A DNA stretch of 64,000 nucleotides from an uncultured Candidatus Saccharibacteria bacterium (GTDB lineage: Bacteria; Patescibacteriota; Doudnabacteria; UBA920), in the NCBI GenBank assembly GCA_964436545.1, contig CAYTCJ010000001.1, forward strand, positions 142,392 to 206,391. Reading direction: 5' to 3'. Shown here in pieces: positions 22,957 through 34,490 of this stretch. A program made the position numbers and the translations under genes. The notes below the pieces were generated by a model, which saw only the letters and a program-made list of their open reading frames with translations, did no database searches and had not been told where the DNA came from. Each line of letters begins with the position of its first letter. The first letter of the stretch is position 1.

Positions 22957-23937
22957 ATGTATTCGTATATTGGTATCGCAGTTATGACTATACGCCACCA
23001 AAAAATTATTTCCGCCATCTTAATTGCCATTGTAGCTTTTGGCGGTTTTGAGATTTTAGCGAAGATAATCAATCTTAACCAAACGGAATGGTTTTTGAAG
23101 GCCGGTTTTGCCATTTGGTTGTATTTGGCACTCAAGATTGGAATTTTATACGATCTCCATTTTAAACAACCGGGAGCTCTAAAACGAGCCATAAAAAAGC
23201 ACGAAAGCATAGAACATTGGTTTGTCCGAAGCCTAAAAATAGTTTTGAGTGCTTTATTTGACCGTTTTAGTCATTTAGCCACCAAAGACCATTGGCTGAA
23301 ATTTCAAAATTATTTAATTCTGCCCGGTATTTTATTTTGGTCAACGGTAATTTTAATTTATAAAAATGCTTCACCCCTTACCGACAGGCCCTTACAGCAA
23401 TTTTTTATTTTTCTTTCGGGTACAGCTTTGGTAGTAGCCTTTTGGTATTTAAAAGAAATTTTTATTCGCCACACGGAAAAGGTGGAATCCGATGTAATTG
23501 CCGGGCTTGCAATAGTAAAAATTTATTCCGCTATTATTGCGTATGGTGCCACCCTCTCTATTTTTAGAAGGTTTTGTTTGGAGCCCAAGTTGTTTGTAAT
23601 GGCGGTGTTTGCAATTAGTTTTTTGTTAATCTACCAAGCCTTGTTCCAACATAAGTTAGTTAAACTTACCAATCTCTTTTGGACATTGGTGATTTCCGGT
23701 CTTATGGGGAGTTTGGGTTATGTGATCTATCGTTTTTGGGCTATTAACCCTTATACGGCCATGCTGGTAATGGGCGCGGTGTTTAATGCCTTATGGGGAA
23801 TTTTCCATTACAAATTAGACGGGGCTTTAACTAAAAGAGCCTTTTTGGAGACTTTATTAATTTGTCTGTTGTTAATTATTATGCTGGCCTCGGTAACCAA
23901 TTTTAAAGAAAGAATTTTAAATGCCTGCGTGTATTAA
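22957..23937 (+). CDS. hypothetical multi-pass membrane protein (326 aa)
   Basis: Long hydrophobic ORF; no family recognised. Confidence 0.55.
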   Translation: MYSYIGIAVMTIRHQKIISAILIAIVAFGGFEILAKIINLNQTEWFLKAGFAIWLYLALKIGILYDLHFKQPGALKRAIKKHESIEHWFVRSLKIVLSALFDRFSHLATKDHWLKFQNYLILPGILFWSTVILIYKNASPLTDRPLQQFFIFLSGTALVVAFWYLKEIFIRHTEKVESDVIAGLAIVKIYSAIIAYGATLSIFRRFCLEPKLFVMAVFAISFLLIYQALFQHKLVKLTNLFWTLVISGLMGSLGYVIYRFWAINPYTAMLVMGAVFNALWGIFHYKLDGALTKRAFLETLLICLLLIIMLASVTNFKERILNACVY

Positions 23938-24983
23938 AACCAATACAAAAAACAGATGACTAACAAGCATAAAATCAATAACACGGTGTTGTTGATTTTT
24001 TTATCCAAATGGGCAAGTTTATTTTGAACTGCCTTATTTAGGTCAATGAGTAAGAAAAATAATATTAAACCCCCCAAAATTAAAATGGGGTTGTTTGCCA
24101 AATCTTTTACGGGATTTGTCTTACTTACTAAACTTTTAATTGGCGCGGAAGTAGTTTTGGCAGGAAGGTTGGTTGGTAAGCTTGGCTTTACCTGGATTTT
24201 CTCGTTTGTTGCTTCATTGCTTAACGGAGTTTGGGGTAGAGTAAAATTTTGAGCAAATTTATCTCCCCTTAGTGCTTCTGGTGGGGGATTAGGCATTAGA
24301 GTCTGAGTTTCAGGGGTCTTTATGTCTACAACCTCCGAGTTAGGCGTTAAAACAGTCTCTGGGGTTTGTGCGCTTAAAGGCGGAGGAGGGGTTTTCTTTT
24401 TTACCACGGTTTTTCGGCTGGAAGTTTTTGGCTTGGGAGCCGGTTTTTTTACCAGAGGAGTGGTTTCGGCAATAGGAGCTGATTTTTTTATTGGTAGTAA
24501 GCTCCCAAAAGTATTGGCAATGGCAGAGCCGTAGGAATTTGCGCCTTGTCCAAAGTTCAGTCCCATTCCTTGGTCTTTAAAACCCTCGGTTAAAATATTC
24601 GCTCTATGGGTGGGGCTGTTCATCCAAGCGCTCATTAAACTTTCCGTGGAAAAAAATTCAATGGCTAAGTTTTCACCCAGCTGTAAGTAGGGAGTATAGC
24701 CTTCGCTTACAATTTTGTTCCAAATATAATTACCCTCCGGATCGGTATGGCTAAAATAGTGACGACTTTGCATATCGTCGGCTTTATATTGAGCAGCTTT
24801 GCCAAGCCGAATGTCCGAGTTTAAGGCCGGCAGGTTATTGGCCAGTCTTTCCTGATTGACAGCATTGAGAATATTTTCAGGAGTTAAATCTGAGGCATTG
24901 ACCCGGGAAGTCTTTATAGGTATATTTCTAAAGGCCAAAATTACTAAGCCCAGTCCCAATAAAATTAAAAGCTTTTTATGCAT
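23934..24983 (-). CDS. CAP/SCP-domain secreted protein with Pro/Thr-rich linker and C-terminal TM anchor
   Basis: Signal peptide; CAP-like core (YFSHTDPEG ... WMNSPTHRANIL); C-terminal hydrophobic helix. Confidence 0.8.
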   Translation of the reverse strand: MHKKLLILLGLGLVILAFRNIPIKTSRVNASDLTPENILNAVNQERLANNLPALNSDIRLGKAAQYKADDMQSRHYFSHTDPEGNYIWNKIVSEGYTPYLQLGENLAIEFFSTESLMSAWMNSPTHRANILTEGFKDQGMGLNFGQGANSYGSAIANTFGSLLPIKKSAPIAETTPLVKKPAPKPKTSSRKTVVKKKTPPPPLSAQTPETVLTPNSEVVDIKTPETQTLMPNPPPEALRGDKFAQNFTLPQTPLSNEATNEKIQVKPSLPTNLPAKTTSAPIKSLVSKTNPVKDLANNPILILGGLILFFLLIDLNKAVQNKLAHLDKKINNTVLLILCLLVICFLYWF

Positions 24984-25081: not shown

Positions 25082-25110
25082 TTGACAAATATTAAAATTT
25101 ATGATATTAT
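25082..25110 (+). promoter_or_regulatory. promoter TTGACA-17-TATTAT for the sortase gene
   Basis: TTGACA 25082-25087, 17-nt spacer, TATTAT 25105-25110. Confidence 0.55.
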
Positions 25111-25144: not shown

Positions 25145-26524
25145 ATGAGTAGCACTGTAGGTAAAAATTATTCCACTACCGAGGAAGTTGCAAAATTACT
25201 TCATTTTTTTGACGAGCCAAAGACCGCTCATCACTCAGAAAATCACACTCATTCCGTAAGTCACGAACCTGAGCAGAATCATCAGCAATCTGATGTAGAG
25301 GTTCATCATTCAGAATCGTCCCATATTCACGGCGAGTCCTTAGAGGAAGATACTCAGACACATTCGAGTGCTTGGCAAAGCCGAATTAGCAAAGTTTTAG
25401 TGGCCATTATTCCTTACGGGGTGGTATTTATTGTGGGAGCAGTGGGGTATTTTTTCTTCTTGTCCAATTCCAATTTTGATGTAAATGTGATCAAACAAGT
25501 TGCTCCTAAGTCTTCGGGTTTACCGGTGGCAATTAAAGATTCGGAAATTTTGGCTTTGCAAAAAAATAACGAAGTGTTAAATCAGTATTATGCTTGGATT
25601 AACAAGTATTATTTTGATGTTTCCGATGCCGGGATTTTAGACCCGAATACCGACAACTCCGGCAATGGGTTAAGTAATTTTCATAAGTATTTGCTGGGCT
25701 TAAGTCCGAAAGCTTATGATTCGTTAGGTTTAGGCATGCCGGATAGCCAAGCTATTGCCCATGGCATTAACCCGTTAAGCGGGGGTAAATTAACCGCCCA
25801 GCAACAAGAGATTGTAGATAAATATTTTGATTTGGAAATTATTAACAATCGCTTGACTTTAGAACAATTAAGCAAGCAAGGTTATGTGGCGGGCAAGAGC
25901 ATTACCAATAATAATTCGTTGGATACTTATAATTCATTTAACTCAAGTAACGATTCTTCACAATTAGAAACAGCCAGGAATGGAATTAAGTTAGTTCAAA
26001 GACCCAATGGGCCAATTACTCAAACTTTAGCTCAAGATAATCCGGTTTTATCGGAAATTGATTCTGCCAATATTAATGTAGATGTTGCCGGCAGGTTGGA
26101 AATTCCTTCGTTGGGGATTAATGTGCCGGTAATTTGGACTAAAAATCCCAAAAATTTTGAAAAAGATTTGCAAAGCGGTGTGGTGCATTATCCTGGCACA
26201 GCTTTACCCGGACAAATCGGGACTGCCTATATTTCCGGTCACTCCAGTAACTATGCTTGGGCCAAAGGCGAGTATAATAAAGTTTTTAGCAAACTCGGAG
26301 ACTTACCCAATAACAGTTCGTTTATTGTGACAGTAGTGCAAAAAAATGGTAAAGATGCCAGATTGCATTATGTAGTAACTAAGCGACAGGAATTTTCACC
26401 GACTGACCAAGAACAGTTTAAAAATACCGGAGATTCTTTGGTAGCGCTATCGACTTGTTGGCCAGTGGGGAGTACAAAATCGAGACTTGTAGTCTTTGGT
26501 AAATTAACTCAAGTGGAAAAGTAG
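25145..26524 (+). CDS. sortase-family transpeptidase with His-rich N-terminal region and TM anchor
   Basis: C-terminal sortase fold motifs (YISGHSS, LVALSTCWP catalytic Cys, conserved R in SRLVVFG). N-terminus is rich in H/S/E. Confidence 0.85.
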   Translation: MSSTVGKNYSTTEEVAKLLHFFDEPKTAHHSENHTHSVSHEPEQNHQQSDVEVHHSESSHIHGESLEEDTQTHSSAWQSRISKVLVAIIPYGVVFIVGAVGYFFFLSNSNFDVNVIKQVAPKSSGLPVAIKDSEILALQKNNEVLNQYYAWINKYYFDVSDAGILDPNTDNSGNGLSNFHKYLLGLSPKAYDSLGLGMPDSQAIAHGINPLSGGKLTAQQQEIVDKYFDLEIINNRLTLEQLSKQGYVAGKSITNNNSLDTYNSFNSSNDSSQLETARNGIKLVQRPNGPITQTLAQDNPVLSEIDSANINVDVAGRLEIPSLGINVPVIWTKNPKNFEKDLQSGVVHYPGTALPGQIGTAYISGHSSNYAWAKGEYNKVFSKLGDLPNNSSFIVTVVQKNGKDARLHYVVTKRQEFSPTDQEQFKNTGDSLVALSTCWPVGSTKSRLVVFGKLTQVEK

Positions 26525-26525
26525 A

Positions 26526-26623
26526 GTTCACAGATCACTGATAAACACTGATAACACAGATGATGTAAGGTGAGGTATCTGTATTGGGTTCACAGATCAC
26601 TGATAAACACTGATAACACAGAT
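26526..26623 (+). repeat. two exact 36-bp direct repeats separated by 26 bp
   Basis: GTTCACAGATCACTGATAAACACTGATAACACAGAT at 26526-26561 and 26588-26623. Confidence 0.9.
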
Positions 26624-26744
26624 TAAGATAAATCCAATGTTTTTAAGCCTTCCAGCTGTTTTAAACCTTGAATTTCTTGATTCAAAAGAGTAATAAAATA
26701 TGAATAAAAGCTTATATAAGAGGAAAAATCTCAAAGCTCCAGAC

Positions 26745-26773
26745 TTGACTTTTTGTCCAAAATAATTTATAAT
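26745..26773 (+). promoter_or_regulatory. promoter TTGACT-17-TATAAT for the giant surface protein gene
   Basis: TTGACT 26745-26750, 17-nt spacer, TATAAT 26768-26773. Confidence 0.6.
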
Positions 26774-26861
26774 ATGTGGTTATTACTTAAAACATTAAGG
26801 TAAGTAACATCAATTAATTTTTTAGTTTATTACCAAATGAGCTAAAAAAGGATAAATCACT

Positions 26862-29800
26862 ATGCAAAGATTTAAATCACTTATAACTTTAAAGGTCTCA
26901 GTTTTAACCTTTGTGGGCCTGTTCCTCTTAGTTGGAACGGTTTTGGCTTTGGCGCCCAGACAAATTACCACTACCAAAGCTGAAAATTGTTACAATGCCC
27001 CGGAAGTTGCCACTTTAAACCCATTTCCAGTGTCTTGGAATGGGGTTACTGGCAGTGATTGTACTGATGCACCGGTGATTGCGATTAGAAATGCCAATGG
27101 GGGCAGTTATGCGCAAAGTGCCAGCGCCCAAGTGGGTGAAGAGTTAAGAGTCAGAATTTATATTCACAATGGTGCTCAGCAAGGTTTAGATACCAACTTA
27201 ACTACCTCTTTAGGGGTAAACGGGGGTATGTATATTAATGGAAATAACATTTCCATGACAGCGACAGCCAGCCGAGGTGATGGTAATGGCGGATATATCC
27301 CGACTAATTCTGTGAATGGTTCTGTGAATGTCGATTTGCCCAGCGGGGCTACTTTGGAAATGATTCCGGGAAGCGAGGAATTTTATGACTATCAGGCTAA
27401 CCGAATCTATTCCGGTTCCGCCGGTTTTTACGGACAGAGCGGAGTTTTTGACATGCAAAATATGGAAGCTTGTTTTGAGTTTTCTAAATTCTTTGTTTTT
27501 AGAGTTAAAGTGATTGGTGAAACCGGCGGGGGTATAAACCCTCCTGCAAATCCCGGCTCTGGTTGGTTAACTGCCAGTTTAGCCGGCACGGTGCCCAACC
27601 AATGCTTGTATAAAGCTAGAGTGCAATGGGATACGGAAAATATGTCCCAAGTGTTGGTGACTGTTTCCAATCCGGAGCAAAATTCCGACAATTATTATGG
27701 TAACGACGTAGTCTTTTCCTATTCGCCAAACAGTGACGAAACTGTTAATTGGATAAATCCTAATGATGGTTATAGGTTTACCCTGTGGGAAGTAAATCCT
27801 GCCAGCGGTGGTCAAAACATGAATGTGGCGGGACAAAATTTATTGGTTAAACACATTGCCGAGCAATGGGTAAGTGGTGGTGATGATAATTTTTGCCACA
27901 CTCCGGTAGCTGATTTAGTATGTTCTCCGGGCAGTCAAAATGCCATGGGGAATGACATTGTTTTATTTAATGCCCAAGGCGGGGATGAAACTTCCGAGTA
28001 TGTTTGGTCAGCCCCGGGTGGTTTTAACCAGCAAAGTAATGGGAAAAATTTTCATGTCACTTATCCGGCTCAGGCCAGTGGAAGTTTTACGGTCACAGTT
28101 TCCAATGCCGGACAGACGGCTGAATGTGTTGTGCATGTAAGTCCCAGAGAACAACAAAATACTAATTATGAATTACACGTTTATAATCAAAACGGTCAAT
28201 TAAAGGACAACGGAGAGTTTTGTGTGGGCGATACCCCACAATATAAAATTACCGGTAATGCTACCATTGCTGGGAGTAAAATTTTGTGGAGTTCTAGAAA
28301 AAATAACGTGCAAACCGGTGAATTTGATGCAGACTATGGTTTTACGTTAAATGCTCAAGGTAATTGGAGCGAATGGGGTTCCACTTGGAATAGTAGTCAT
28401 ATTGGTGATTGGGAAAAACAATCTAATGTTAACTATGTTTTAAAAACTGTAAGTTTTAGAGTGAAGGATTGTTCTAATACTCCTCCGCCTCCAGTGGCAG
28501 TTTGTCCAAGTCAAAATCTTTCTGGATACCCCACAACCATTAAAATTGGGGAATATGCAACTGTTTTAGCTCCAGCTGGTTGGAATGGCGGTACTTTAGT
28601 ATCTTCTAACCCAAATGTGGCTCCAGTTTTTGGTGGAAATAGTGTGGTTGGTAGAGCTCAAGGTAGTACTAATGTTTCTGGTACTGGCTTTACCGCACCA
28701 AACGGCGCCACCAATTGTGCTTTAGGTGCAGTAAATATTACTGTTACCCAAACTCAAACTCCTCCACCTTCAGCCGTGTGTCCAACTGGACAAAGTGTTT
28801 CTGTTTCTCCTGCCTCAATTAAAGTAGATGAGTATGCTACAGCTTATGCGCCTAGTGGCTGGTATGGTGGATCTTTTAGTTCATCTAATTCCAATGTTGC
28901 CTCAATTTCCGGTAGTAGCATAAGAGGTAATGCTCAAGGTACTGTATCAATCTCCGGTTCCGGGTTTACTGCTTCTAACGGCGCCACCAATTGTGCTTTA
29001 GGTGCGGTGAATGTTTCCGTGACCCAAACGCAAACTCCGCCTCCGGCAGTGTGTCCGAGCGGGTATAGTTTAAGCGTTTCCCCAACTTCCTTTAAAGTAG
29101 GCGAATACGGTTATATTACCGTGCCCAGCGGATGGTATGGTGGAAATTTTACTTCTTCAAATACTTCAGTAGCTAATATATCCGGTATGTCGGTTTATGG
29201 TTACGGTGCCGGTACAGCCTCTATTTCCGGCTCAGGCTGGACTGCTTCTAACGGCGCTACCAATTGTGCTTTAGGTGCGGTGAATGTTTCCGTGACCCAA
29301 ACTCCGCCTCCGGCTGTTTGTCCAACCGGCGCTTATGTCTCTGTTTCTCCCGCTTCCGTAAAAGTAGGTGAATATGCTACAGCTTATGCGCCTAGTGGCT
29401 GGAGTAATGGGAGTTTTAGTTCTTCAAATTCTTCTGTGGCTTCTGTTTCCGGCAATAGCATAAGAGGTAATGCTCAAGGTGCTGTATCAATTTCCGGTTC
29501 CGGGTTTACTGCTCCTAACGGCGCTGTTAACTGTGCCTTAATCGGAGCGAGTTTAAATGTGACCATTCAGCCTCCTCCTCCGGCAGAATGTCCAAGTAAT
29601 GCCAGCGTGAGAGTGACTCCGGCTAATATTTATGTAAATGATTTTGCCACTGTTTCCGCTCCGGCTGGTTTTAGTAACGGAAGTTTTGTTTCTTCCAATC
29701 CTTCAGTAGCCAGTTTGGTAGATGGTGCCAGAGGTAATTCAATCAAAGGTTTATCGGCCGGTACGGCTTATGTGTCCGGAACTAACTGGACTGCGCCTAA

Positions 29801-32411
29801 CGGGGCTGTTAATTGCAGTTTAAGCAGTGATTCAATTACAGTAAGTAATCGACCAATTCAGCCTCCGGCAGAAGTTACCGCCAGTGCCACCGCTACCGCC
29901 AGTGCCACCGCTTATGCCAGCTGTCCAGATGGCACCAGAGCCAGCGCCAGCGCTTCGGCCAGTGCCACTGCCACCGCGACCGCGAGCACCAGAGGTGAAG
30001 CGGAAAAGTTAGCTTACGAAAGGGCCTATGCTCAAGCTGAAGCTATGGCCTATGCCCAAGCTGAAGCCAAGGTAGTTTGTAAAGAATTACCCCCACCGCC
30101 TCCAGCTCAATTAACCTGTTCCCCAATTCAACAAACCGCGGATGTTAACCAGACTGTGAATTTTTCCGCTAATGGCGGAAATGGGACTTACACTTGGACC
30201 GCCAACGGCGCCGTAATTACCAGCGGTAACGGCAGTCAATTTAGCACTCGTTATACTCAAGGCGGCAGTAAAGTGGTAAGTGTAAGTAGCGGAAATCAAA
30301 CGCAAAATTGTTATGTGCAAGTTAATCAAGTTCAAACAGAAGCGTTAACTTGTACCACTTTAACTCCGGAAGTGGAAATTAACCAAACTGCCAATTTTAG
30401 GGCTACCGGCGGGGCGACCTCGGCTTACGCTTGGCAAGCTTTGGGAGCTAATCCGGCCAGTGGCAACGGACGTGATTTTAGCACTAAATTCAGTTCCGCG
30501 GGTTATAAAACCGTCTTTGTGCAAAATGGTTCTGCTACCGAAAGCTGTTCGGTGAGAGTTAAAGAACCTGTCCAGTCCAATGCGGAAATGGAATTGGTAA
30601 AGACCGTTCGAAATCTTACCGACAATACCGACTTTAGTCATAACGTAAGCGCTAAACAAAACGATAAAGTAGAATACAAAATTTTTGTGAGAGCTTTAAC
30701 CGCTACTGCTTTGCGCAATGTTAGAGTTACCGACGAAATGCCTTTCGGTTTAATTTACGAAGCCGGTAGTTTAAAAGTGGACGGTCAAAGCTCCAATCCG
30801 GGCTTGACGAGTGGTGGTTTAGTGTTTGATACGGTTAATCAAAATGGGATTACCATTACTTACCGAGCGACGGTAAATGTGAATAGTGGCACCCTTACCA
30901 ATTTGGCCCGAGCTACGGCCGATAATGCCCAAAGTAAATTAGATCGAGCCAATATTACTGTAGTGCCGGTTGTTCAAGGTCAACCAACTTTAAGCATAAC
31001 TAAAGAAGTTAGAAACTTAGGACCTTCTCAGACTACTAACTTTACTTCTTCGGTAAATGCCAAAAAGTCCGATACCGTTCAATATCGCATTACGGTTAGA
31101 AATGTGGGCAATGCCACAGCTAACAATGTGGTCTTAAGCGACTCCAGCATTATTATCAATTCCATTACCGGTTTGTCTGTTTCCAAAACTTATTCCGGCA
31201 CCTTGTCAAACGGTTTGAATTTAGGCAGTTTGGCTCAAGGTGAAAATGTCATTATCACTTACAATGCCAATGTGTCCATTGAGCAGGGTGAAATTAGAAA
31301 TACCGCTACGGTCTCGGCTTCTAATGCTTCTACCGAAAGAGCCATTGCTTTAGTTAATGTGATCAAAGACAATGAACCACCGGTCAATCCGCCGGGCGGA
31401 GGGAGTACTAATATTATCAACACTTGTGTAAACAATTCCTGCAACAACACGAATATTGTTTACATCAACCAAACCGGAGGCACTGTGCCGGCAAATGACT
31501 TTAGACAACTTTCTATTTCAAAGTTAGTCAGAAGTATTAATGGTGGAGCGTTCCAAGACAGTGTAAGCGTTAACAATAACGATACCGTGGAATTCGAAGT
31601 CATTGTAAGAAATACAGGGAATCAGGTAGTTAATAATGTCATCTTAAACGATACCTTTAGCTCTAATTTGTATTTGGTTTCCGGTACGGTGAGAGTAGAT
31701 GGTAATTATTGGGGTGATAATATTAACTCAATTAATTTAGGTAGTATTTTAAGCGGTCAGCAAAAACGGGTGGTGTTCCAAGCTAGAGTTAATGGTGCTT
31801 CCGGTCAAACCGTACAAAATATTGCCAGAGTTTACGGCGATAATGCCAATCAAGTGCAGGATGACGCTTGGGTGTTTGTGCAAGGTGGTCAAGTGCAAGG
31901 GGGTAATGTAAATTTGGTTTATAGCAAAAAAGCAGTAAACGAAACCAAGAATACCGAGGCTACCGCTGTTGTAGCCAGTAAAGAAGATTATATTACCTAT
32001 ACCTTAACCGTAACCAACTCCGGTAATGTACCGGCTAACAGTTTTGTGATCACCGATGACTTAAGCCAAGTTTTACCTTATGCCGATATGGTAGATAACG
32101 GCGGTGGATCTTTATCCGGAAATATTTTGTCTTACCCCGGCATTACCATCCCAGCGGGGGGCAGTGTAAGTAAGAGCTTTAAAGTCAGAGTCAAATTTGC
32201 TTTAGCAGCTAACTTGTCTTACACCATGACTAACACTTATGGCAATACCGTAAGTATCCGCATTAATACCCCGCAAGTTTTAGGTGCTTTTGTGGCTCCG
32301 AAAACCGGTGGGCCTTCCGCTCAAATGGCTTCTATCTTTGGTACCTTAATGGTTGCCGGTATGGTAGTAGTGAGAAATAGAAAAAAAGTTTTGGAACTTA
32401 TCTGGAGTTAA
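26862..32411 (+). CDS. 1849-aa sortase-substrate surface protein (signal peptide, Ig-like/PKD-like repeats, DUF11-type repeats, C-terminal APKTG sorting signal)
   Basis: N-terminal signal/TM. Repeated modules. C-terminus is VAPKTGG, then a hydrophobic helix, then RNRKK, the classic sorting-signal architecture. Confidence 0.88.
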   Translation: MQRFKSLITLKVSVLTFVGLFLLVGTVLALAPRQITTTKAENCYNAPEVATLNPFPVSWNGVTGSDCTDAPVIAIRNANGGSYAQSASAQVGEELRVRIYIHNGAQQGLDTNLTTSLGVNGGMYINGNNISMTATASRGDGNGGYIPTNSVNGSVNVDLPSGATLEMIPGSEEFYDYQANRIYSGSAGFYGQSGVFDMQNMEACFEFSKFFVFRVKVIGETGGGINPPANPGSGWLTASLAGTVPNQCLYKARVQWDTENMSQVLVTVSNPEQNSDNYYGNDVVFSYSPNSDETVNWINPNDGYRFTLWEVNPASGGQNMNVAGQNLLVKHIAEQWVSGGDDNFCHTPVADLVCSPGSQNAMGNDIVLFNAQGGDETSEYVWSAPGGFNQQSNGKNFHVTYPAQASGSFTVTVSNAGQTAECVVHVSPREQQNTNYELHVYNQNGQLKDNGEFCVGDTPQYKITGNATIAGSKILWSSRKNNVQTGEFDADYGFTLNAQGNWSEWGSTWNSSHIGDWEKQSNVNYVLKTVSFRVKDCSNTPPPPVAVCPSQNLSGYPTTIKIGEYATVLAPAGWNGGTLVSSNPNVAPVFGGNSVVGRAQGSTNVSGTGFTAPNGATNCALGAVNITVTQTQTPPPSAVCPTGQSVSVSPASIKVDEYATAYAPSGWYGGSFSSSNSNVASISGSSIRGNAQGTVSISGSGFTASNGATNCALGAVNVSVTQTQTPPPAVCPSGYSLSVSPTSFKVGEYGYITVPSGWYGGNFTSSNTSVANISGMSVYGYGAGTASISGSGWTASNGATNCALGAVNVSVTQTPPPAVCPTGAYVSVSPASVKVGEYATAYAPSGWSNGSFSSSNSSVASVSGNSIRGNAQGAVSISGSGFTAPNGAVNCALIGASLNVTIQPPPPAECPSNASVRVTPANIYVNDFATVSAPAGFSNGSFVSSNPSVASLVDGARGNSIKGLSAGTAYVSGTNWTAPNGAVNCSLSSDSITVSNRPIQPPAEVTASATATASATAYASCPDGTRASASASASATATATASTRGEAEKLAYERAYAQAEAMAYAQAEAKVVCKELPPPPPAQLTCSPIQQTADVNQTVNFSANGGNGTYTWTANGAVITSGNGSQFSTRYTQGGSKVVSVSSGNQTQNCYVQVNQVQTEALTCTTLTPEVEINQTANFRATGGATSAYAWQALGANPASGNGRDFSTKFSSAGYKTVFVQNGSATESCSVRVKEPVQSNAEMELVKTVRNLTDNTDFSHNVSAKQNDKVEYKIFVRALTATALRNVRVTDEMPFGLIYEAGSLKVDGQSSNPGLTSGGLVFDTVNQNGITITYRATVNVNSGTLTNLARATADNAQSKLDRANITVVPVVQGQPTLSITKEVRNLGPSQTTNFTSSVNAKKSDTVQYRITVRNVGNATANNVVLSDSSIIINSITGLSVSKTYSGTLSNGLNLGSLAQGENVIITYNANVSIEQGEIRNTATVSASNASTERAIALVNVIKDNEPPVNPPGGGSTNIINTCVNNSCNNTNIVYINQTGGTVPANDFRQLSISKLVRSINGGAFQDSVSVNNNDTVEFEVIVRNTGNQVVNNVILNDTFSSNLYLVSGTVRVDGNYWGDNINSINLGSILSGQQKRVVFQARVNGASGQTVQNIARVYGDNANQVQDDAWVFVQGGQVQGGNVNLVYSKKAVNETKNTEATAVVASKEDYITYTLTVTNSGNVPANSFVITDDLSQVLPYADMVDNGGGSLSGNILSYPGITIPAGGSVSKSFKVRVKFALAANLSYTMTNTYGNTVSIRINTPQVLGAFVAPKTGGPSAQMASIFGTLMVAGMVVVRNRKKVLELIWS
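28483..29865 (+). repeat. five tandem roughly 270-bp (about 90-aa) Ig-like repeats inside the giant gene
   Basis: Each unit runs PPP-(A)VCP...NGA(T/V)NCAL...V(T/S)VTQT. Long stretches of DNA identity occur between units, e.g. AACGGCGCCACCAATTGTGCTTTAGGTGC. Confidence 0.85.
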
Positions 32412-32481
32412 ATATACGGATATTAATCTACTGATACTACAGATGCCTACAGATAAAGACTGTAGATAAAATAAAAATAAC

Positions 32482-32505
32482 AGCGGGGGCTTTACAGCCC
32501 CCGCT
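32482..32505. terminator. bidirectional terminator between convergent genes
   Basis: AGCGGGGGC-TTTACA-GCCCCCGCT flanked by A/T runs. Confidence 0.7.
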
Positions 32506-32549: not shown

Positions 32550-32990
32550 TTATAATATTTTATTTGTGCCCCCGCTTTGATTAGTTTTTTGTGAGTTTAA
32601 GGCTTCGGCAAGTGGTCTTTCCAGAATAATTTCTTTATTTTTTAACTTAAATCCGACAAGAATACCAGGGATGAGAAAAGTAAGTAGAGTTATTGCTTTG
32701 ATTGGATTTTTTGAAATTATATTCAAGAAATCATGTAAATAAAAATTTTTAAAAGAAGTATTACCGATAAGCATAAGTCCAAAAAATGAAATCAGAAATG
32801 TTGAGCCGATAGAAGTTAGTCTTGCTCTTATTCCTCTAAGGTAATATGGATTAACGTGTTCACTCTTTATAATATTAAAATTTTTTTGGTTATGATATCG
32901 ACCTAATATTGACATTTCACCAGTTATTAACCCATGACTAAAGTAGCCAATCGCAACTCCAAATATTAAACACAATAAATATCCCAACAT
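32550..32990 (-). CDS. hypothetical membrane protein (146 aa)
   Basis: Four hydrophobic segments; no family recognised. Confidence 0.5.
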   Translation of the reverse strand: MLGYLLCLIFGVAIGYFSHGLITGEMSILGRYHNQKNFNIIKSEHVNPYYLRGIRARLTSIGSTFLISFFGLMLIGNTSFKNFYLHDFLNIISKNPIKAITLLTFLIPGILVGFKLKNKEIILERPLAEALNSQKTNQSGGTNKIL

Positions 32991-33269
32991 GTTTGTATTA
33001 ATTTAATGTTTATTAAATACATTATACCAAGATTTTTTAATTATTAGTAGCTCTAAAAAAGGGTGAGTTAAACTACCATTATTCCTCTTGCCTAAGTTTT
33101 ATTTTTGGATTATTATAATTACAAACGAATACACATACCAAAACACAGCCAAAAATTGTTAGAGAAATGAGGCTGTTTTATTTTATCACCGATCACAGAT
33201 AGCACAGATACAGGATTTTAAAACAAAAATTAGTGAATTAGTGTTATCGGTGATCTGTGGACAATATTT

Positions 33270-34490
33270 ATGGATCAAACTTATTTAAAAGAATTAATTG
33301 AAGAAGTCAATAAACGCCAAGGCGGGGTGATTTTGAATTTGGATAATTCGCCTTCGGCCGTGGTTTTGTCCATTGAAAAATATAATCAGTTAATCAGCAA
33401 TCAGCAATCAGCGAATCAGCAATCAGCAATCAGCGAATCAGCAATCAGTAGTTCCTCCTTCGCTTCCAACTTCGCTGATGCTTCGTTGGACAAGAAAGCT
33501 ATGGAGGATAAACAGCAGTCAGCGAATCAAACCATTTTGGTTACCGGCGGGGCAGGGTATATTGGCGCGCATTTGGTTAAACAACTTTTGCATGCCGGGT
33601 ATAAGGTTGTGGTGGTGGATAATTTATCTACCGGTAAAAGAGAAAACGTTCCCAGCCAAGCAATTTTCTTAGAAGGCGATTTAGCCGATGTAAATTTTTT
33701 GCGTGATGTGTTTTCCGCGCATAACATTTCCACAGTTGTGCATTTGTCCGCATCGATTGAAGTGGAAGAATCGGTAAAAGAACCGGTAAAATATTTTGAA
33801 AACAATGTTTTAAATTCCGCTAAACTGCTTTTGGTTATGGATGAGTTTAATGTGCGAAAGTTAATTTTTTCTTCCACCGCAGCCGTGTATGGAGAACAAA
33901 AACAACAACCCATTTCCGAAACTGCCCTCCCAAAGCCCAATAATCCTTATGGACACAGTAAACTGTTAGCCGAGCAAGTGATTGAATATTACTGCACTCA
34001 TAAGCAATTTACCGCAGTGGTGTTTAGATATTTTAATGCTTGTGGGGCGGATTTTGAAGGCAATATAAAAGCTACGCACGAATCGCATTTGCTCGCCAAA
34101 GTTATGCAAGTGGCGCACGGCCATGTTGCGCAAATTGTGGTGAATGGGGCCGATTACCACACCCCGGACGGCACTTGTGTCCGGGATTATGTGCACGTGT
34201 TGGATATTGTCGGTGCCCATATTTTAGCGTTAAATAAATTCGGAGAGTTAAAAGGTTTTGAGGTTTTTAATATTGGCACTGGCCAAGGAGTAAGCGTTTT
34301 GGAAATTATTAATGCCACAGCGGAATATTTAAATAAAATGATTCCTATGCAAATGGGGGAAAGGCGAGCGGGCGATGCGGAAGAAACCGTGGCTGATGCG
34401 GAAAAAATTAAACAGTATTTGGGTTTTAAACCCATGTTTAGCGATTTGGAAACCATAGTCAAAACAGCTTATAAACAATCGGCGAATTAA
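33270..34490 (+). CDS. galE: UDP-glucose 4-epimerase with an in-frame N-terminal Phd/YefM-like extension
   Basis: GalE core begins near VTGGAGYIGAH with YGHSKLLAE catalytic motif. An internal ATG at 33501 would give a normal-length GalE of about 330 aa. Confidence 0.85.
   Translation: MDQTYLKELIEEVNKRQGGVILNLDNSPSAVVLSIEKYNQLISNQQSANQQSAISESAISSSSFASNFADASLDKKAMEDKQQSANQTILVTGGAGYIGAHLVKQLLHAGYKVVVVDNLSTGKRENVPSQAIFLEGDLADVNFLRDVFSAHNISTVVHLSASIEVEESVKEPVKYFENNVLNSAKLLLVMDEFNVRKLIFSSTAAVYGEQKQQPISETALPKPNNPYGHSKLLAEQVIEYYCTHKQFTAVVFRYFNACGADFEGNIKATHESHLLAKVMQVAHGHVAQIVVNGADYHTPDGTCVRDYVHVLDIVGAHILALNKFGELKGFEVFNIGTGQGVSVLEIINATAEYLNKMIPMQMGERRAGDAEETVADAEKIKQYLGFKPMFSDLETIVKTAYKQSAN
33384..33449 (+). 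repeat. AATCAGC-type heptanucleotide array (7+7+8-nt pattern) inside the galE ORF
   Basis: Counted directly; encodes ISNQQSANQQSAISESAIS between the Phd-like part and the GalE part. Confidence 0.9.

Follow-up and report, generated by a model that had tools for sequence, protein, structure and literature searches.

The 64,000-nucleotide stretch analysed here (hereafter the window; contig CAYTCJ010000001.1, positions 142,392 to 206,391) comes from an uncultured bacterium of the Doudnabacteria lineage and carries on its + strand a sortase gene followed by the gene of a giant secreted protein that ends in a non-canonical sorting signal, APKTG. The sortase gene (25145..26524, +) codes for a type II membrane protein of 459 residues, assigned from the open reading frame (ORF), Pfam and NCBIfam matches and homologues. 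The second ORF (26862..32411, +) begins 338 bp downstream of the sortase and codes for a 1849-residue secreted multi-domain surface protein, identified as the sortase substrate from the ORF, domain scans and the occurrence of orthologs downstream of related sortases. A preliminary description of this DNA had placed the two ORFs at these positions and recognised in the first a sortase with a transmembrane (TM) anchor and the motif LVALSTCWP, all of which is borne out by Pfam, the structural model and the sequence.

The substrate C-terminus (...GAFVAPKTGGPSAQMASIFGTLMVAGMVVVRNRKKVLELIWS; the end of the 1849-long protein as read from the ORF is ...INTPQVLGAFVAPKTGGPSAQMASIFGTLMVAGMVVVRNRKKVLELIWS) has, at the very end of the chain, the tripartite layout of a pentapeptide followed by a hydrophobic segment and a basic tail, with Ala at position 1 of the pentapeptide instead of Leu. 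This putative cell-wall sorting signal (residues 1806-1849; 32277..32408, +) is composed of LGAFV-APKTG-G, a 21-residue hydrophobic segment, the cluster RNRKK and the sequence VLELIWS, a tail of about 8 residues that closes the protein. The isolated tail, defined as the last 69 residues and scanned alone, scores 16.3 bits against TIGR01167 LPXTG_anchor (cutoff 15.9) in an alignment that starts at profile position 3, past the Leu position. APKTG (residues 1812-1816; 32295..32309, +) is the sole xPxTG sequence of the protein, and a search of the substrate for a YPK pilin motif, any [YFW]PK, an E-box or a second xPxTG found none. Among all ORFs of the 64-kb window, examined in six frames, no other ends in a credible sorting signal. 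Cleavage between Thr and Gly of APKTG is the likely outcome by analogy, with Thr1815-Gly1816 as the predicted scissile bond, because all characterised sortases cut in this way, including Clostridioides difficile SrtB acting on (S/P)PXTG (PMC4155245).

The sortase matches Pfam Sortase PF04203 over residues 318-454 with 75.6 bits (cutoff 26.6) and narrowly passes TIGR01076 (41 bits, cutoff 39.35). Its relatives at E<=1e-5 number 461, those that are named belonging to Candidatus Doudnabacteria or the Patescibacteria group. Alignment of 32 members, the window protein and 31 homologs, divides the polypeptide into five regions: a cytoplasmic part, a TM helix, an extracellular segment, a linker and the catalytic domain. 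Residues H366 (in ISGHSSNY), C438 (LSTCWP) and R447 (SRLVVFG) are invariant in 32 of 32 sequences, and so are Gln424 and Phe425 of the β6/β7 loop. The catalytic domain (residues 301-459 with His366, Cys438 and Arg447; 26045..26521, +), delimited by alignment, model and Foldseek, is predicted by AlphaFold (AF2) as the eight-stranded β-barrel of sortases, with a predicted local distance difference test (pLDDT) score of 85-95, residues 1-78 and 247-300 being disordered in the same model. Foldseek pairs the domain with solved structures from sortase classes C, A, E and F at probability 1.0, with E-values down to 5e-12. It carries a β6/β7 loop, PTDQEQFxNxG, that is conserved in the family, and it ends the protein 12 residues after Arg447, without a C-terminal TM segment. 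The score above the Pfam cutoff, the invariant triad and the confidently modelled fold identify ORF 25145-26524 as a true sortase.

The regions preceding the catalytic domain have distinctive features. The cytoplasmic N-terminal region (residues 1-78; 25145..25378, +), defined by the alignment and modelled with pLDDT <50 at residues 23-78, contains a motif KKYPxxTxEVAKMLG (residues ~8-28; 25166-25228) that is kept family-wide ahead of a variable low-complexity region, which suggests a possible cytoplasmic interaction site. The His/Ser/Glu-rich stretch singled out in the preliminary description is present as quoted there; it belongs to the region that varies in length and composition among the 31 homologs, is common only to the closest of them, and reads as lineage-specific noise rather than a family trait. 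The TM anchor (residues 79-106, helix 78-106 in the AlphaFold model; 25379..25462, +) is conserved, with P90, F95, Y102 and F105 invariant in the alignment, and the basic residues N-terminal of the helix predict an N-in/C-out orientation by the positive-inside rule. It is followed by an extracellular helical module (residues 131-245; 25535..25879, +), defined by alignment and model, which is modelled as all-helical with pLDDT about 80-90 and carries the near-invariant sequence DNSGNGLSNFxKYLLxLNPKxYD, among the most conserved stretches of the protein (D170, N171, S172, G173, N174, G175, L176, N178, F179 and K181 are invariant). The module has no Pfam match at E<=0.05; by eye it may be likened to a degenerate bacterial calcium-binding repeat of TSP3 type (DxDxDGxxDxxE) with its acidic residues replaced, a tentative likeness for which Pfam gives no match. 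We know of no characterised sortase class with such a helical module. An Asn/Ser-rich disordered linker (residues 247-300; 25883..26044, +), unalignable, variable in length and with pLDDT <50, connects it to the catalytic domain.

Sortase classes are linked to particular signals, LPXTG for class A, NPxTN or (S/P)PxTG for class B, LPNTA for class D and LAXTG for class E. The NCBIfam class models give the window sortase 54.1 bits for class C (cutoff 160), 44.4 and 46.7 bits for class D (cutoffs 165 and 140), 40.3 bits for class E (cutoff 160) and 20.1 bits for class F (cutoff 166), and the class A and class B models have no match at E<=0.01 to any of the 32 family members. All 32 members lie under every class-specific cutoff, with class C top-scoring for each of them. 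The check with class-specific hidden Markov models (HMMs) that had been proposed for this protein consequently places it with no class of known specificity. Its sequence matches in the Protein Data Bank (PDB) are weak, <=30 bits. Class assignment by fold was also attempted and failed: structures of classes C, A, E and F all match in Foldseek with E-values from 5e-12 to 5e-10, a spread of no more than two orders of magnitude, class C heading the list. The core superposes best on lid-less enzymes of classes A and E (TMt 0.70-0.77), and the lowest root-mean-square deviation is with Streptomyces avermitilis SrtE, 2.6-2.7 A over 154 columns. The DP[FWY] lid motif was found nowhere in the protein, the region before β1 being the variable disordered linker. 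A family HMM detects one sortase domain only in the window and in each related locus (1.33 Mb searched). The protein is treated here as an unclassified sortase subfamily of Candidate Phyla Radiation (CPR) type.

Relatives of the sortase are encoded in 398 loci of the genome collection, 80 of which were fetched with 10-kb flanks and had all their ORFs scanned for the C-terminal motif, TM segment and basic layout. A signal-bearing protein is found downstream of the sortase in 45 loci; in 13 others the downstream ORF has the orthologous head domain and either its C-terminus lies off the contig or, in L035, it was missed by the filter and reads FIAPKTG. With 13 loci too short to judge, the pairing of the sortase with the giant orthologous protein is kept in 58 of 67 informative related loci. 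Neither upstream nor anywhere else did the flanks of the 80 loci contain a signal-bearing protein. The preliminary description had put forward a non-canonical APKTG signal paired with the sortase, and this pairing proves to be a property of the clade in which Ala at the first position is near-invariant. Its proposed search for other sorting termini revealed no LPXTG protein in the window or in the 1.33 Mb of related loci, so that the refuting pattern named there, a sortase of unrelated specificity together with many LPXTG proteins, is not observed.

Ala is the first pentapeptide residue in 47 of 51 large locus substrates and Leu in 0, with the consensus V-L-G-A-F-[V/I]-A-P-K-T-G-A-[D/E]-T. Two independent samples of protein databases concur: all 21 complete tails among homologs of the C-terminal domain read [A/P]PxTG (APKTG, APQTG, APTTG, PPKTG), and the tails of the head-domain family (135 HMMER representatives) read APKTG (35), APTTG, APPTG, APRTG and similar, Leu-first signals being confined to its remotest members (E about 1e-4). 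A pool of 119 distinct tails was selected with a filter for Ala, Ser or Pro at the first position, Leu being excluded by design and covered by the open-position scans. Within this pool 82 motifs are APKTG, 109 begin with Ala and the others with Ser or Pro, and Phe or Tyr occupies position -2 in 110 tails. The motif and the basic cluster are separated by 20 residues in the median, and after the cluster come another 8 (median), often ending in ...LIFT. APATG, along with SPKTG and PPKTG as minor variants, occurs among the Doudnabacteria tails. Small non-orthologous proteins of ~210 residues encoded beside distant sortase members end in [F/Y]-x-[A/S]-P-x-[T/S]-G. That these small proteins combine an aromatic residue at -2 with a small first residue argues that both are recognition features and not mere ancestry. 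Chance is excluded by conservation, as tails of this architecture turn up in dozens of independent genomes. The Ala-first motif, the aromatic residue at -2 and the conserved β6/β7 loop would together indicate a co-evolved specificity rather than a tolerated mutation. As far as the tails can tell, APKTG is a natural specificity variant conserved lineage-wide and not a one-off mutation.

The same data bear on one alternative, that the adjacency is coincidental. In that case the C-terminal helix would serve as nothing more than a membrane anchor, APKTG would have no role, and the enzyme would act on unrelated substrates encoded elsewhere. It draws on nine related loci that keep the sortase without such a neighbour and on the apparently separate promoter-like sites of the two genes. 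It is at odds with the near-invariant A-P-x-T-G and -2 aromatic residue, which keep a fixed spacing (median 20 residues) to the basic cluster across 119 distinct tails, with the presence of the motif in non-orthologous small proteins beside the same sortase family, and with the lack of an alternative substrate in any flank. We regard coincidence as very improbable, and conservation all but excludes it.

The substrate has the anatomy of a stalked surface protein. Its putative signal peptide (residues 1-40; 26862..26981, +), whose function is read from the layout of a basic n-region and a 20-residue hydrophobic core, lies in a region conserved as ...LALAPR...TKA|EN, with APR and xAExC kept in the alignment and a predicted cleavage site. 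The head that follows is formed by two β-sandwich domains (residues ~42-220 and ~230-340; 26985..27881, +), modelled confidently (pLDDT 86) as a tandem, and the locus-derived alignment shows invariant C67, H102 and C204 together with the motifs YVHNGA and ACFEFS. The head has no Pfam relative and no significant PDB sequence match in a profile search, and its structure matches are to generic FnIII/Ig-like folds only. It defines a lineage-restricted family, which is rare: an exhaustive HMMER search of 1.84 billion proteins yields 135 representatives, the domain being almost always N-terminal in large proteins, and a word-indexed homolog search with the head yields 3 proteins only. The head and the C-terminal ~300 residues are the best conserved parts across loci and the middle is variable, so that a conserved N-terminal head and a C-terminal anchor region flank a variable repeat middle in an adhesin-like architecture.

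Self-BLAST of the substrate gives no off-diagonal matches, and its repeats were delimited by Cys spacing and then aligned directly. The first copy of a ~80-residue Ig-like module, named here type 1 (27897..28145, +; Cys354-Cys422), is identified by alignment and by weak sub-cutoff PKD-type matches. It is followed by a ~110-residue module without significant family match (residues 430-540; 28149..28481, +; Cys454-Cys537) and by five tandem ~90-residue repeats, each with a Cys pair and with Pro-rich linkers between them (28494..29864, +). The repeats, established by alignment, have 47-63% identity to the first copy and 28 invariant columns including the two Cys; they match neither Big_2 at E<=1 in Pfam nor anything in a profile search of the PDB. 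An Ala/Ser/Thr-rich low-complexity spacer, then an Ala/Glu/Tyr-rich (AYAQAEA-type) segment and a poly-Pro stretch (29870..30075, +) separate them from copies 2 and 3 of the type 1 module (30093..30572, +), again recognised by alignment and sub-cutoff Pfam matches. An 18-bp tandem repeat lies within the spacer at 29876-29920. The three ~80-residue modules have 33-41% identity to the first and score 19.2 bits for PKD (cutoff 23.5) and 24.2 bits for BiPBP_C (cutoff 26.8), with an intimin Ig-like match at E=0.004. The counts of five and three modules given in the preliminary description hold by alignment; its labels Big_2 and PKD do not, as nothing exceeds the Pfam cutoffs, and the defensible description of the modules other than DUF11 is that of Ig-like modules of unresolved family.

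The stalk ends in four DUF11-type (TIGR01451) domains (residues 1244-1805; 30591..32276, +). Scanning of this segment gives 100.7 bits for DUF11 PF01345 in 4 stretches and 67.4 bits for DUF7507, and TIGR01451 gives 90 bits against a cutoff of 24, also in 4 stretches; PDB sequence search of the region returned nothing significant. Both the spacer and the DUF11-type repeats, of which the preliminary description counted at least four, are present. Most modules other than DUF11 have a conserved Cys pair, which suggests intradomain disulfides in the stalk, and the four DUF11-type modules may form isopeptide bonds.

We privilege the hypothesis, with a probability of roughly 70%, that the two genes form a lineage-specific, Doudnabacteria-type sortase-substrate pair in which a natural [F/Y]-x-A-P-K-T-G signal directs wall anchoring of a long-stalk surface protein. 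The 1849-residue protein would be exported by the Sec pathway through its N-terminal signal peptide, and the C-terminal hydrophobic segment and basic tail, arranged as expected for this role, would hold it in the membrane. The outside-facing Cys438, aided by His366 and Arg447, would then attack the Thr-Gly bond of APKTG by the chemistry of the sortase family, and an amine of a peptidoglycan precursor would resolve the acyl-enzyme to leave the protein covalently attached to the cell wall. As a result, a stalk made up of about 13 Ig-like modules would present the conserved two-β-sandwich head at its tip, as in a surface adhesin of MSCRAMM type, which plausibly contacts a host cell or a substrate.

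Several observations weigh against this hypothesis. Nine loci, forming a distinct subclade, have at least 6 kb of sequence downstream of the sortase yet no substrate; the enzyme may therefore have substrates that are encoded elsewhere. In the distant loci L065, L066, L069, L070, L072, L075, L077 and L078 the sortase is followed by 2-3 signal-bearing genes. The best class model is that of class C, though far under its cutoff (54 vs 160 bits), and the last DUF11 domain resembles the isopeptide-forming D2 domain of RrgB (TIGR04226, 25.7 bits, under the cutoff of 30, E=1.7e-5). The head has no identifiable ligand-binding homolog in sequence and fold searches, so that the term adhesin is founded on the architecture of the protein. 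The cleavage site and the acceptor are proposed by analogy to known systems. Two expressions of the preliminary description have to be softened accordingly. A dedicated sortase is not established, given the nine loci without adjacent substrate, the 2-3 substrates of the distant loci and a view limited to 64 kb in the window, and it stays a plausible idea. In the same way, a host-attachment adhesin fits the architecture of the protein, its head gives only generic FnIII/Ig-like fold matches, and the proposal is kept as plausible.

Some of these observations would be expected from assembly of a pilus or fibre, in which a class C-like polymerase joins copies of the giant protein or other subunits by linking the Thr of APKTG to a Lys of the next subunit. 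Class C is the top class HMM for all 32 family members and class C structures head the Foldseek list, the match of the last DUF11 domain to the fimbrial isopeptide D2 model TIGR04226 (E=1.7e-5) is echoed by the name that JGI gives to an ortholog fragment, and the distant loci line up the sortase with one or two large and a small (~210 residues) signal-bearing protein in overlapping genes, reminiscent of operons for tip, shaft and base pilins. All class C scores are, however, about one third of the cutoff (54 vs 160 bits), and the fold is matched just as well by classes A, E and F. The sortase has neither a lid motif nor a C-terminal TM segment, the substrate has neither a YPK(N) motif nor an E-box, the window holds a single substrate with a single sortase, and a subunit of 1849 residues and about 15 domains is unlike shaft pilins. 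Anchoring is favoured because the pilin motif, the E-box, a second xPxTG and the lid are missing, each locus has one sortase and the best superpositions are with lid-less enzymes; pilus assembly is in our opinion unlikely.

In the distant loci the gene of a ~210-residue DUF11-like protein (for example L070:17930-18586 and L072:7917-8549) shares an overlap with the end of the large gene before it, a layout like that of a pilus operon.

The genomic context raises a different possibility. The pair sits in an island of cell-envelope glycopolymer and lipoprotein genes whose order is collinear in most related loci. Upstream are genes for Lgt, a dTDP-sugar dehydratase, a nucleotidyl transferase, a polytopic membrane protein and a divergent CAP-domain protein; downstream are those for an epimerase, a GT2 glycosyltransferase, an S8 subtilase, a Wzx-like flippase, a GT4 glycosyltransferase, a Wzy_C protein and an S41 protease. 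The acceptor could accordingly be something other than peptidoglycan, namely an envelope polymer or lipid made by the glycopolymer island, or cleavage at APKTG could end in hydrolysis and shedding of the protein. The setting within a conserved island of sugar-nucleotide enzymes, GT2, GT4, Wzx-like flippase and Wzy_C ligase-like protein speaks for this, as do the extra conserved extracellular helical module of the sortase and the atypical conserved 8-residue tail after the basic cluster, in organisms whose envelopes are poorly understood (PMC5220378). Nothing found here, however, points to such an acceptor, and collinearity of the island may reflect vertical inheritance rather than functional coupling. 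Characterised sortases are also all known to use a peptide amine as nucleophile. We consider this possibility improbable to about the same degree as pilus assembly, and attachment to peptidoglycan is the preferred proposal.

The kind of system described here is already known: annotation pipelines name relatives of the two proteins 'sortase' and 'LPXTG cell wall anchor', and PGAP and JGI give ortholog fragments the names 'LPXTG cell wall anchor domain-containing protein' and 'fimbrial isopeptide formation D2 family protein'. Sortases are widespread in CPR bacteria, where one family of them occurs in over half of the genomes (PMC6744442). The nearest natural counterpart of the signal is that of C. 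difficile SrtB, the single sortase of its genome, which serves a few adhesin-like substrates through a natural (S/P)PXTG motif, mainly PPKTG and SPKTG, cut between T and G (PMC4155245, PMC5118464). Both systems have a small non-Leu first residue followed by P-x-T-G. C. difficile SrtB is, however, a class B enzyme, whereas the window sortase has no class B match and its best, weak scores are for classes C, D and E; the preference of SrtB is not for Ala, the dominant residue in the Doudnabacteria tails; and the window enzyme differs by its extra helical module and long cytoplasmic N-terminus.

Comparison with the paradigm of class A, Staphylococcus aureus SrtA, reveals a common N-terminal membrane anchor, lid-less core and His-Cys-Arg triad, and the LPXTG substrates of MSCRAMM type resemble the window protein in their signal peptide, N-terminal head, repeat stalk and tripartite sorting signal. 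The two systems diverge in that the window sortase has no class A HMM match, the locus substrates are Ala-first and never Leu-first, the recognition region extends upstream to F/Y at -2, and an 8-residue tail follows the basic cluster. Class E enzymes of Actinobacteria (PDB 5go5, 9j0t) likewise have a lid-less core and a motif, LAXTG, in which Ala takes the place of a canonical residue; there it replaces Pro at position 2, whereas in the window it replaces Leu at position 1. The LPNTA-type motif of class D is unlike APKTG. On the side of the substrate, the four DUF11-type domains above cutoff and the D2-like terminal domain recall DUF11/TIGR01451 surface proteins and the D2 stalks of RrgB, from which the window protein differs by a TIGR04226 score below cutoff (25.7 vs 30) and by a head and a five-repeat block without described family.

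In the open-access literature and bioRxiv, neither a natural sorting signal beginning with Ala nor this sortase subfamily was found described, and APKTG or APXTG are mentioned there solely as sequences targeted by engineered variants of S. aureus SrtA. These variants, F40, F1-21 and cW11, accept APxTG, and F40, assayed on an APKTG peptide, prefers XPKTG with X = A, D or S (PMC9126251, PMC8248031, PMC11638967). They have the motif in common with the system described here, and their histone H3 target APATG is also found among the natural tails. They differ from it as products of laboratory randomisation of the β6/β7 loop with reduced activity, whereas the window enzyme, to judge from its alignment, is natural and conserved and has an unrelated loop, PTDQEQFxNxG. 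A 2026 preprint on a novel CPR pilus was considered and set aside, since it mentions a sortase in passing only and deals with a different system. A search for literature on the cell wall or adhesins of Doudnabacteria returned only irrelevant fungal papers.

These findings would add a clade-wide natural Ala-first signal to the known LPXTG, NPQTN, (S/P)PXTG, LPNTA and LAXTG, together with an enzyme family outside the curated classes, and provide a natural experiment on the tuning of the first-position pocket. So far, sortases that accept APxTG (F40, F1-21, cW11) have come from directed evolution alone; they are valued for orthogonal labelling and for histone H3 ligation at the native APATG; a natural APKTG enzyme could be a better starting point. 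For the uncultivated lineage, the pair is a conserved syntenic feature that puts a lineage-restricted head at the cell surface, and the surface protein is a testable candidate for a molecule of cell-cell attachment in these presumed episymbionts. A bolder and more tentative proposal, to which we give somewhat less than even odds, is that the family constitutes a new CPR-restricted sortase class, distinguished by its conserved helical accessory module and by strict, extended recognition of [F/Y]-x-A-P-K-T-G to the exclusion of LPXTG, a natural APxTG ligase whose substrate would be the principal host-contact adhesin. If true, it would supply a ready-made orthogonal ligase for APxTG sites, including APATG of histone H3.

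Two conserved genes lie directly upstream of the sortase. The polytopic membrane protein (22957-23937, +) has no Pfam match and a conserved C-terminus (...TNFKERILNACVY), and is present in 54 related loci. The divergent CAP/SCP-domain protein with a C-terminal TM segment (23934-24983, -) is present in 58. Both could be functionally linked to the sortase, or merely syntenic with it. Because the epimerase directly follows the sortase in the nine loci without substrate, the sortase belongs to the conserved backbone of the island and the substrate gene is a variable insert. In the subclade L047, L049, L051, L052, L054-L058 and L063 (54-61% identity in the catalytic domain) the collinear backbone is kept, with the epimerase directly after the sortase and no substrate gene in this place. 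The NAD-dependent epimerase of the window (33270-34490) has an extra N-terminal extension of ~85 residues with a weak Phd/YefM antitoxin-like match (26.5 bits, cutoff 29.8) and two copies of a Gln/Ser-rich repeat, SANQQSA.

About 20 related loci encode an extra secreted protein of 250-760 residues between the sortase and the APKTG substrate, a gene that is absent from the window. Examples are found at L006:11389-12279, L008:11330-12772, L010:11165-12394, L011:9453-11711, L028:1819-2994, L029:11653-13947, L036:11412-12254, L060:10787-12547, and others. We rejected the idea that these ORFs are detached N-termini of the substrate, as they code for unrelated secreted proteins with their own C-terminal anchor. 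Their conserved C-terminus consists of a Lys-rich patch (PPKKG/KKK), a Gly/Ala-rich TM helix, GGG and a tail of 10-20 residues ending in Pro (...GGRP, ...GGKP, ...PGRP or ...PRSP), has no PxTG motif, and may be a different anchoring or sorting signal. Three short contigs attributed to metagenome-assembled genomes (MAGs) from outside the CPR, L064 (Acidobacteriaceae MAG), L068 (Binatia MAG) and L075 (Verrucomicrobiia MAG), carry a CPR-type sortase with a head-domain protein and are probably due to binning contamination rather than horizontal transfer.

The intergenic regions contain a few candidate regulatory elements. Promoter candidates of sigma-70 type precede the sortase (TTGACA-17-TATTAT, TG-extended; 25082..25110, +) and the substrate (TTGACT-17-TATAAT; 26745..26773, +), each assigned by an 11/12 match to consensus alone, in a region where the total of promoter-like sites is not over shuffled expectation. 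Two perfect 36-bp direct repeats GTTCACAGATCACTGATAAACACTGATAACACAGAT (26526-26561 and 26588-26623, +; 0 mismatches, 0 expected by chance) lie 26 bp apart in the spacer between the two genes, starting directly after the sortase stop codon, with no other copy in the window; the repeat may be a regulatory or protein-binding element. An 'ACAGAT'-rich stretch likewise lies after the substrate stop codon (about 32420-32470), and a partial match with 2 mismatches is found at 33194-33209. Between the substrate gene and the convergent ORF 32550-32990(-), a GC-rich perfect palindrome AGCGGGGGCTTTACAGCCCCCGCT flanked by A/T runs (32482..32505, no strand assigned) is a terminator-like element that looks like a bidirectional intrinsic terminator.

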